32,000 nucleotides of DNA from Prochlorococcus marinus subsp. pastoris str. CCMP1986. GTDB taxonomy: Bacteria; Cyanobacteriota; Cyanobacteriia; PCC-6307; Cyanobiaceae. Of the stretch, positions 27,922 through 28,892 are shown one piece after another. The translations under genes and the position numbers were made by a program. Location: assembly GCF_000011465.1 (NCBI RefSeq), contig NC_005072.1:1050001-1082000 (forward strand). The letters run 5' to 3'. The notes beneath the pieces are model-generated. The model was given only the letters and a program-made list of their open reading frames with translations. It ran no database searches and was not told the origin of the DNA. Numbering within the stretch: position 1 is the first letter of the stretch; every line of letters begins with the position of its first letter.

Positions 27922-28106
27922 TAGGTCTCATCCGTCTTGGACATAGCTTTTGAAGTTGTTGGACAAAATATTAGTTATTTTTGAATATCTGATCTCAACC
28001 TAAGACGTGAAAAGTATTGGAAATTGGTTGGCTAGTCTCATTAGTTAGTGGGCGTACTGTCCTCGACACAATGCTTATGTCTCTTTTTTTTCTAAAGTAT
28101 ATATAA

Positions 28107-28210
28107 GGTGGAAAAGTAATTAATATATAAGGCTATTACTACTATTTAACCTATTTTTATAGGGTGGGAAAGTAGGTGCGAAAGTATGGAGGTTTGACCA
28201 ACTTTTCCCC
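28107..28210. repeat. Iteron-like 12-mers GGTG(G/C)(A/G)AAAGTA, three direct copies plus one inverted partial copy
   Basis: GGTGGAAAAGTA is at 28107-28118. GGTGGGAAAGTA (28163-28174) is directly abutted by GGTGCGAAAGTA (28175-28186). The inverted copy ACTTTTCCCC is at 28201-28210. All lie just 3' of the helicase fragment. Confidence 0.6.
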
Positions 28211-28229
28211 TTTTCCAGTTCTTTTTTTA

Positions 28230-28799
28230 TTAAAAAACTTTTGTAATAGCGAAGTAAGCATATTTAGGTCTCCCGCCTGTTGAAGGTAGTCCCTTTTTAT
28301 CTATGTTTTTGTCTTTTGCCAATTCCCTAAGTACTTCATCTGTATATTTCTTATTAATTGAGAGTTTTTGGCTTATTTCATCAGAAGTGAAAAACCTATC
28401 AGAATTATCATTAATGTAAGTCCCAATTCTTTCTCTATGGGTTTTTAATTCATTTAACGTGCAACCTAATCCTTTCATTCTTAAAAAATGGACTCTTTGA
28501 TCTTCTTCCGAACCTTCGAATAAATAGATTTGATTATTTTTCATAGTGTTGCCCCTAGATTTAAAACTCTTAAGGCTATAGATAGTTTCTCCCCTTTCCC
28601 CTATTTCTTTCCAATAGCCCCAAACATCAGTAGAAGCATTTTTCAGATAAACAGTTCCAAATATATCGTTAGCTGTTAATTCTGGCGTTTTACTTTCTTT
28701 CTTTCTGGTGTGATGAGTCATAAGAACGGCTACTTGTTTAGTAGTGCTAATCCTTTTGAGCCTATACAAGAACAATGCAAATTCAGCAATACCCCGCAA
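28230..28799 (-). pseudogene. 5'-truncated RepA/DnaB-like (AAA_25-type) replicative helicase fragment with a C-terminal winged-helix
   Basis: VAVLMTHHTRK is the HHxxK strand of RecA-fold RepA-type helicases. The Walker A and anything N-terminal are missing. The frame opens directly after a TAG, and its first codon is TTG. The C-terminal end (TSDEISQKLSINKKYTDEVLRELAK) looks like an HTH. Confidence 0.6.
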
Positions 28800-28846
28800 C
28801 TATTTAGTCATAGCTTGTAGACATAGTGCTCTACTAGGTTTGTTAA

Positions 28847-28892
28847 GTGCTTTGGGAGCACTAGGTCGCAGGTTCGAATCCAGTCTCACTGG
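28847..28892 (+). repeat. Partial tRNA-Pro (3' part), att-like copy 4, 41/46 identical
   Basis: The first 35 nt are identical to 21459-21493. Five mismatches are all in the last 11 nt. Confidence 0.8.

Follow-up and report, generated by a model that had tools for sequence, protein, structure and literature searches.

A truncated helicase gene and conserved iteron-like repeats in the tRNA-Pro island of Prochlorococcus marinus MED4: a probable relic of a replication module

The locus studied here lies in a 32,000-nt stretch of the genome of Prochlorococcus marinus MED4 (CCMP1986), called the window below and used for all coordinates, and occupies the distal end of the third segment bounded by attachment (att) sites (segment 3) in the tRNA-Pro island of this strain. 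It consists of a 189-amino-acid (aa) open reading frame (ORF), a non-coding stretch of ca. 310 nt directly 3′ of its stop codon, which contains 12-mer repeats, and a 74-aa ORF beyond that stretch (Table 1). The product of the 189-aa ORF is 100% identical to CAE19586.1 / WP_011132760.1 of MED4. Att copy 4, next to this ORF, is 98% identical across 41 nt to att copy 2, which serves as the reference for this repeat family (family D3). The 189-aa ORF proved to be the 3′ part of a helicase gene, and the two ORFs and the stretch between them are interpreted below as a probable relic of a replication module.

The frame of the 189-aa ORF opens with a TTG at 28799-28797, immediately after an in-frame TAG (28802-28800) and 45 nt from att copy 4. 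A homologue search with a query built from L001 gave 14 intact or nearly intact proteins of 378–407 aa that were 74–100% identical to the query, together with relatives at 35–42% identity (the relatives are contigs from ocean metagenomes, numbered L, and proteins, numbered P). Homology to the full-length proteins begins at ORF residue 5, and in a 20-sequence alignment the first homologous residue aligns to A220 of the 404-aa protein P0014; the fragment corresponds to the C-terminal 46% of a RecA-fold AAA_25 helicase of ca. 404 aa. In P0014, the Walker A motif (GTGKS) lies at G116–S121 and the Walker B motif (hhhDSL) at D205, both upstream of the A220 breakpoint, and both motifs are absent from the 189-aa ORF. 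P0007 and contigs L001 and L002 have a longer version of the same frame, which includes Walker B (LVIFDSL) and, further upstream, Walker A (GTGKSS). In none of the relatives does DNA homology to the window go beyond 28788, so that the breakpoint (28788/28789) is ca. 56 nt from att copy 4, and no primase part was found at the MED4 locus. The spacer between breakpoint and att core showed no similarity to related loci and may be a remnant of the terminal arm of the element. Restoration of a full helicase in MED4 by an upstream exon or a frameshift was excluded by the sequence of 28789-28892.

Against Pfam AAA_25 (PF13481), the fragment scored 17.1 bits (E 0.004) over profile positions 167–194 of 195 only, which is below the gathering threshold of 27 bits, whereas the full-length homologues (400–407 aa) scored 75–82 bits (P0007, 82.3; P0014, 75). 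Therefore, membership in AAA_25 holds for the ancestral gene and not for the fragment as a domain. The other profile matches of the fragment taken by itself were likewise sub-threshold, with phrog_3123, a PHROG of unknown function, at E 1.5e-6, and primase/helicase PHROGs more weakly. An exhaustive HMMER scan of 1.84 billion representatives yielded 80 matches, nearly all aligned from query residue 5 or 6; most align at the C-terminal ca. 180 aa of longer proteins, many of them of 400–1000 aa, the length range that would be expected of primase-helicase fusions. A sequence search of the PDB gave only a marginal match to RadA (E 0.025). When the AlphaFold 2 model of P0014 [predicted local distance difference test (pLDDT) 76, predicted TM-score (pTM) 0.73] was compared using Foldseek, it matched KaiC, RadA, Rad51, DnaB, and T7 gp4 at E 1e-10 to 1e-8. 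Of the RecA-type α/β core of P0014, the window fragment keeps the distal strands only.

The C-terminal part of the ORF forms a separate domain. An AlphaFold model of the last 82 residues (pLDDT 79) has the topology helix-helix-helix-β-β, and Foldseek placed it among the MarR, PadR, Lrs14, and ROK winged-helix DNA binders with TM-scores of 0.6–0.77. Profile models of winged-helix regulators matched the fragment at E 4e-5 to 8e-3. An earlier reading made from the letters of the window (the sequence-only reading) had described the ORF as retaining the HHTRK strand and the distal RecA-fold region of a replicative helicase and a C-terminal helix-turn-helix (HTH), as lacking Walker A and any primase part, and as opening with a TTG right after a TAG, ca. 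50 nt from att copy 4. The results above bear out this description: the ORF contains MTHHTRKK and aligns to A220–404, the missing motifs lie upstream of A220 in the homologues, the HTH is a winged helix, and the similarity to helicases was established through the full-length homologues.

In the non-coding stretch, the first repeat begins 9 nt past the stop codon of the helicase ORF. The three direct 12-mers that the sequence-only reading had listed, the last two of them contiguous, were found at 28107-28118 (GGTGGAAAAGTA as read), 28163-28174 (GGTGGGAAAGTA), and 28175-28186 (GGTGCGAAAGTA), and so was the inverted partial copy said to follow them (ACTTTTCCCC, 28201-28210). A second CTTTTCC is located at 28210-28216, and the half-sites formed by these two are inverted GGAAAAG. 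The 12-mers are hereafter called iterons, and their consensus is TACTTTnnCnCC. The pattern GGTGNRAAAGTA has 4 matches in the window against 0.87 expected, three of them within 80 nt. TACTTT, the core hexamer on the gene strand, was counted 5 times within 319 nt, all in one orientation, against 0.23 expected (Poisson P ~4e-6). Left and right of the AT-rich spacer, the iterons have the same direction, and the two inverted half-sites are both gene-proximal. The statement that the stretch is less AT-rich than its background is true (34.1% GC compared with 29.5% in the window) but weak, since 24% of 308-nt windows are as GC-rich.

We also looked for other kinds of signal around these repeats. An Rfam search of 27400-29300 gave nothing meaningful. 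When the distal intergenic half was folded as a consensus, either strand yielded weak energies and lacked compensatory pairs, and a structured RNA was rejected for these reasons. The promoter and terminator scan showed nothing above chance and no terminator-like hairpin.

In 12 related loci, among them the ones with an intact helicase, the ca. 310-nt region follows the stop codon directly. It was aligned among 13 sequences, of which 11 loci extend far enough to cover the iterons. Conservation was expressed as the mean majority frequency per alignment column (Table 1). A 140-nt core was mostly 82–91% identical between pairs that are not near-identical (79% in a single pair). For the coding region next to it, such pairs showed a synonymous divergence (dS) of 0.5–1.3 and a ratio of non-synonymous to synonymous divergence (dN/dS) of 0.13–0.23. 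The core thus changes ca. 4–6 times more slowly than the synonymous sites of the adjacent gene, which argues for purifying selection on the DNA itself. Two checks proposed with the sequence-only reading therefore turned out in its favor: in the intact homologues, too, these repeats are found just 3′ of the stop codon, and the 12-mers are conserved, iterons 2 and 3 being nearly invariant across the 11 loci. The repeats were also traced in L017, whose helicase is ca. 40% identical and whose contig has 54% GC. In L017, ACTTTYNCNC has 4 matches against 0.20 expected (0/200 shuffles), and three of the four read exactly ACTTTTCCAC. These matches lie 77 nt before the helicase stop (inverted), 4 and 108 nt after the stop, and a short distance upstream of the start of the helicase gene. 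The MED4 region and L017 also have AGTTGGTCA and GTGGAAAAGT in common.

Table 1 Features of the helicase-repeat locus and the tRNA-Pro copies in the MED4 window. Column frequency is the mean majority frequency per alignment column.
Feature	Position	Strand	Column frequency	Remark
Full tRNA-Pro(tgg)	21431-21504	+		
Partial tRNA-Pro 3′ copies	22881-22926, 25396-25441, 28845-~28892			Mark the att-bounded segments
74-aa ORF	27697-27921	+		C-terminal 74 residues of a 120-aa protein, 5′-truncated; left edge of the relic
Distal half of intergenic region	27922-28086	-	0.89-0.94 (distal 160 nt)	Fifth TACTTT (TACTTTTCACG, 28006-28016)
Iteron 3 (TACTTTTCCACC, 28107-28118), then TTATATATACTTTAGAAAAA	28087-28118	-	0.98 (iteron 3); 0.99 (TTATATATACTTTAGAAAAA)	Nearly invariant block; TTATATATACTTTAGAAAAA holds the fourth TACTTT
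AT-rich spacer between iterons	28119-28162	.	0.93	44 nt, 82% AT; candidate DNA-unwinding element
Iterons 1 and 2, contiguous 12-mers	28163-28186	-	0.89 (iteron 1); 0.99 (iteron 2)	Gene strand TACTTTCGCACC and TACTTTCCCACC; in iteron 1 TACTTT fixed, other positions variable; iteron 2 invariant at 11/12 columns
Linker			0.66	9 nt; free to vary
Inverted half-sites and AGTTGGTC	28196-28219	-	0.93	Gene strand CTGGAAAAGGGGAAAAGTTGGTC: two half-sites inverted relative to the iterons and conserved AGTTGGTC; 17/24 columns invariant, 13 loci
Mechanical ORF, 189 aa	28230-28799	-		Homologous coding part 28233-28788, matching residues 220-404 in an AAA_25 helicase of ~404 aa
Winged-helix domain, ORF residues 108-189	28233-28478	-		AlphaFold model and Foldseek; weak Lrs14, Sta1, Rrf2, and MarR hidden Markov model matches
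Annotated coding sequence CAE19586.1, 163 aa	28230-28721 (ATG at 28721)	-		'Possible NAD(P) transhydrogenase beta subunit'
Spacer between helicase breakpoint and att core	28789-28844	.		56 nt
Att copy 4	28845-28892	+		Partial tRNA-Pro(tgg) 3′ end; fourth copy, counting from the full gene

In intact relatives, the module has the order small HTH (xis-like) gene, primase or primase-polymerase-like gene, 404-aa helicase gene, non-coding region of ca. 310 nt, and convergent 120-aa gene. The start of the helicase gene overlaps the end of a 323–377-aa gene in L005, L006, L010, and L017. The 323-aa gene of L005 matches the primase parts of primase/helicase PHROGs, and phrog_3123 spans both L005 ORFs (primase-like and helicase) as one fused protein. 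L005 shows the order 409-aa integrase-like gene, tRNA-Pro att, 92-aa HTH (xis-like) gene, primase-like gene, helicase gene, and repeats, with the primase-helicase pair at 2481-4663. Its 409-aa protein is weakly integrase-like (phrog_1, E 0.0019; LRHSYSVRG), and its att is a 62-nt match (93.5%) to the 3′ end of tRNA-Pro with the same att core as in the window. The L005 att has TCACGCAAA repeats to its left and right (1558-1582 and 1750-1790), 2 at one flank and 3 at the opposite flank, and both flanks also contain AAGTCTCAG and CAGTTATAGC. TCACGCAAA, AAGTCTCAG, and CAGTTATAGC are candidates for the arm and core sites of an integrase of a third type, directed at the same tRNA. A helicase scan of the genome collection gave no match, and no complete element was found from a cultured or single-amplified genome (SAG). 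Scans of viral contigs with protein patterns and the 20-mer TACTTTCCCACCCTATAAAA gave no match.

The 120-aa gene lies convergent with the helicase gene, beyond the non-coding region, in L010 and L013. Since the 74-aa ORF of MED4 is a fragment of this gene, the MED4 relic is truncated at both ends and spans ca. 27697-28788. The 120-aa protein and its neighbors obtained no assignment in Pfam, NCBIfam, and PHROG searches. The gene is located at 845-1207(-) of L013, and in L010 (2269-3432(-)) it ends an operon of small genes (65, 126, and 132 aa). Clustered at 90% identity, its family comprises at least 158 clusters, most of which come from marine metagenomes and SAGs of Prochlorococcus, and the helicase family 25 clusters. 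The distal half of the intergenic region (27925-28086) is as conserved as the iteron half and was seen in L002, L007, L009-L011, L013, and L020; three TGAGAC-like motifs (27925, 27992, and 28035, + strand coordinates) are spaced 40–65 nt apart in it. L020, a relic at the end of a 41-kb contig, has att(+), an N-truncated 120-aa gene(+), and the distal intergenic half only, the iterons and the helicase having been lost. This pattern of retention suggests that the distal half goes with the 120-aa gene.

With these features together, we consider it probable that 27697-28788 is a relic, of ca. 1.1 kb, of the replication module of a tycheposon-type integrative element resembling the phage-inducible chromosomal islands (PICI), and that the non-coding region was its origin. 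The model is built on the replicon of the Staphylococcus aureus pathogenicity islands (SaPI), in which the C-terminal winged helix of Rep binds iterons, the helicase loads itself, and the iterons lie immediately downstream of rep with an AT-rich center (PMC9371898). Because the arrangement in MED4 and its relatives mirrors this replicon, we infer origin activity for the region and iteron binding for the winged helix, which is presumed to be the origin-recognition or specificity domain. In the proposed mechanism, the winged helix of the helicase would bind both the TACTTTnnCnCC iterons and the GGAAAAG half-sites in inverted orientation, loading of the helicase would take place at the 44-nt AT-rich spacer between the iterons, and the adjacent primase would then start synthesis on the excised circle. 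The claim of the sequence-only reading that a helicase beside iterons is the arrangement of an origin gains support from the conservation of the repeats and the SaPI-like layout, activity as an origin being suggested by analogy. Its further proposal, that segment 3 once replicated autonomously, would rest on a 1.1-kb relic truncated at both ends.

The likeness to SaPI and PICI extends to a primase gene followed by an initiator-helicase with a C-terminal winged helix (recognition of the repeats being assumed here by analogy), to repeats placed immediately 3′ of the helicase ORF on both sides of a central AT-rich region, and to a satellite-like island element that integrates at a tRNA att. However, the Reps of SaPI are AAA+ proteins [superfamily (SF) 3/MCM-like], whereas the helicase described here has a RecA fold (AAA_25). 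The repeats are 12-mers with a 6-nt invariant core and not penta- or hexanucleotides, the flanking iterons are co-directional with inverted half-sites on one side, and no sequence homology exists. The system would therefore resemble the SaPI replicon in function without being a member of its family.

RSF1010 RepA and T7 gp4 are RecA-fold ATPases (SF4) with Walker A, Walker B, and HHxxK motifs and are associated with primases. RepA/DnaB-type helicases are loaded at origins recognized by a separate initiator, such as RepC for RSF1010. Unlike RSF1010 RepA and T7 gp4, the helicase of the present family has a winged helix of its own, a feature suggestive of an initiator-helicase that loads itself.

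The element shares with the tycheposons described by Hackl et al. (bioRxiv 10.1101/2020.12.28.424599) the host, the tRNA-Pro island as a target, partial tRNA copies between stacked elements, and a small primase and helicase module, the last on generic PHROG and Pfam evidence; L005 additionally has the integrase-like gene, the att, and the xis-like gene. In contrast to tycheposons, the MED4 copy is a 1.1-kb fragment without a site-specific integrase that lies at one of its ends and faces inward.

Several observations weigh against this interpretation. A tblastn search with the integrase-like protein of L005 found no integrase remnant anywhere in the window, including segment 3. The att is co-directional with the helicase in L005, the only intact relative with a visible att, and anti-directional in MED4; the arrangement in MED4 is therefore not what a simple integration of an L005-type element with a later deletion produces. 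For SaPI origins an opposed arrangement of the iterons is described, whereas those on either side of the spacer here are oriented alike. The whole 310 nt is conserved and not the repeats alone, so other functions may be encoded there. In L014 and L018, which carry 40%-identical homologues, genes follow directly after the helicase and the DNA at hand contains no such motif. Finally, the private substitutions of MED4 comprise 5 synonymous, 4 non-synonymous, and 12 intergenic changes (1 of the latter within the first 147 nt), numbers too small to bear on relaxed constraint on the MED4 branch.

The conservation of all 310 nt leads to the first alternative, in which the helicase relic is real but the non-coding region is a pac or cos site, an operator for the 120-aa or another element protein, or a bidirectional terminator. 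Such a function would agree with the conservation of the distal half, which has the three TGAGAC-like motifs and no iterons, with the retention of this half and the 120-aa gene in L020 after loss of the iterons and the helicase, and with the far wider spread of the 120-aa family than of the helicase (158 and 25 clusters, respectively). However, the repeats co-occur with the 3′ end of the helicase gene even in the 40%-identical L017 of very different GC content, iterons flanking an AT-rich spacer after a winged-helix initiator-helicase are a known origin layout, and neither a terminator-like hairpin, nor promoter-like enrichment, nor RNA covariation appeared on either strand. We therefore regard a non-origin function as unlikely.

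A retained, stand-alone winged-helix protein (163 aa from the ATG at 28721), which would bind the repeats and, for example, interfere with other elements or regulate neighboring genes, seems improbable to us. The frame is open for 189 codons, the dN/dS of MED4 against intact homologues (0.13–0.20) is no higher than among intact genes, the origin core of MED4 has 1 private change in its first 147 nt, and the last 104 codons are intact in 5/5 decayed copies, all of which would fit a gene still in use. The low dN/dS is nevertheless uninformative because most divergence predates the truncation, and the chance of three stops all missing the last 104 codons is ca. 0.2, as estimated from sequence lengths. 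In addition, the identical truncation was not found in other genomes, in which relics break elsewhere, and no promoter-like site was found upstream of the ORF.

Integrase arm-type sites provide another precedent for 12-mers in this island. Tandem 12-mer pairs lie 50–170 nt from the att cores at both ends of segments 1 and 2, and the TCACGCAAA repeats flank the L005 att on both sides, so the helicase-adjacent 12-mers could in principle be of this kind. In intact relatives, however, the TACTTT repeats directly follow the helicase stop, which in L005 is ca. 3 kb from the att; the L005 att has its own, different arm repeats, and no copy of the TACTTT repeat lies next to att3. An arm-site origin of the 12-mers is thus very improbable. 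The GenBank name of CAE19586.1 would make the ORF an NAD(P) transhydrogenase beta subunit, and a genome-scale metabolic model (PMC5111396) includes PMM1127 among its transhydrogenase genes. The homology results already refute this reading, which retains practically no probability, since no Pfam or NCBIfam transhydrogenase (PNTB) model matched it at E up to 1 and all its homologues are C-termini of AAA_25 helicases.

The name 'possible NAD(P) transhydrogenase beta subunit' is accordingly a misannotation of a helicase fragment, as judged by sequence comparison. CAE19586.1 is apparently PMM1127, to judge from the shared name and the accession numbering, and the correction thus touches a gene apparently used in that published metabolic model.

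Returning to the relic of a replication module as the preferred interpretation, we infer the following history for MED4. One deletion would have removed helicase codons 1–219 with Walker A and Walker B, the primase gene, the xis-like gene, and presumably the integrase gene, ending 56 nt from att copy 4, and a second break would have removed the first ca. 46 codons of the 120-aa gene. The sequence-only reading had placed the loss of the 5′ portion at or near the recombination junction; a 5′ loss near the att stands, but it calls for a deletion that is at least 3 kb long and ends 56 nt from the att core, and not for recombination at the core. Variable architecture has been described for tycheposons (bioRxiv 10.1101/2020.12.28.424599), and L005 fits one arrangement and MED4 another. 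The MED4 arrangement fits the other tycheposon type with the integrase, xis-like gene, primase, and helicase N-terminus deleted, and the L020 relic has the same orientation as MED4. The two ends of segment 3 were searched for an inversion signature, and the inner flank of att3 and the helicase breakpoint shared no more than an inverted match of 22 nt at 73% (25454-25475 with 28785-28806; TAAATA...GGTATTGCT), which does not stand out from the many random matches in AT-rich DNA and is probably due to chance.

Decayed copies are also frequent among the relatives. In L019 (101-457), the helicase is cut at N183 and carries a frameshift, and its 5′ breakpoint differs from that of MED4. L001, L002, and L004 each have one in-frame stop, each at a different codon (near contig positions 1689, 125, and 314, respectively), and two of these stops are AAA to TAA changes; P0008 is an intact version of L001. 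These stops and truncations reflect either gene decay that is common in wild populations or, in some cases, assembly errors. The differing breakpoints of decayed modules among wild genomes could serve as markers for dating island integration events.

The MED4 relic cannot drive its own replication. Its origin-like core is at consensus, so that it would at most respond to a helicase supplied in trans. Rather improbable, in our estimate, is the idea that the relic is not inert, its origin core being fired by a helicase provided in trans by a related element, either incoming or co-resident, with in situ over-replication or mobilization of the flanks, e.g., the acyltransferase gene, or the relic titrating the helicase as an incompatibility or immunity determinant against elements of this kind. 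The acyltransferase gene also lies in segment 3 and may or may not belong to the element of the relic. If this idea were true, origin relics would be active players in the gene flow of Prochlorococcus islands, and the retained winged-helix fragment would possibly be involved.

The relic itself is ordinary, because stacked and degenerated tRNA-Pro elements have already been described for Prochlorococcus. The tycheposon preprint reports degenerated remnants in islands, and its main text makes no mention of iterons or of an element origin (bioRxiv 10.1101/2020.12.28.424599). New here are the winged-helix domain of the helicase family, the conserved origin-like iteron region beside the helicase, and the corrected annotation. 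The region is a candidate cis-acting origin for a family of tycheposon-like elements, in which iterons of the consensus TACTTTnnCnCC and an AT-rich spacer go together with a primase and a winged-helix helicase as a self-contained set, and the relic hints at what the origins of these ocean elements probably look like. Genetic tools are lacking for Prochlorococcus, and the region could also be a basis on which to build a vector that replicates in it.

Other repeats were observed in the island. Tandem 12-mer pairs of GGGTAGCTA(G/A) are located at both ends of segment 1 (21555-21578 and 22735-22758), and tandem 12-mers of GGGGCTCTA(G/A) at both ends of segment 2, with 2 copies at 22998-23025 and 4–5 copies at 25218-25274. 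They are unrelated to the helicase-adjacent repeats and look like arm-type integrase sites of two different elements. Each end of segment 2 also has the palindrome ATCTTCGAAGAT (23027-23040 and 25296-25309), placed after the GGGGCTCTA repeats at an equivalent relative position. Just past att copy 4, a perfect 12-bp hairpin (CTGTTTAATACT...AGTATTAAACAG) is found at 28950-29010, followed by an 84-aa ORF at 29191-29445(-) that had no Pfam match at E 0.001. The C-terminal motif of this ORF, ERTNGRLAMIGF, resembles that of a high-light-inducible protein, and the zone of the hairpin and the ORF may be the transition from the island to the flanking genes. Elsewhere in the window, a 300-nt direct repeat of 99% identity (15057-15356 and 18273-18572) covers the 3′ ends of two paralogous genes of 380 and 381 aa [ORFs 15058-16200(-) and 18274-19419(-)], which had no Pfam match, and a tetratricopeptide repeat (TPR)-sulfotransferase gene (16296-18137) lies between these paralogues.

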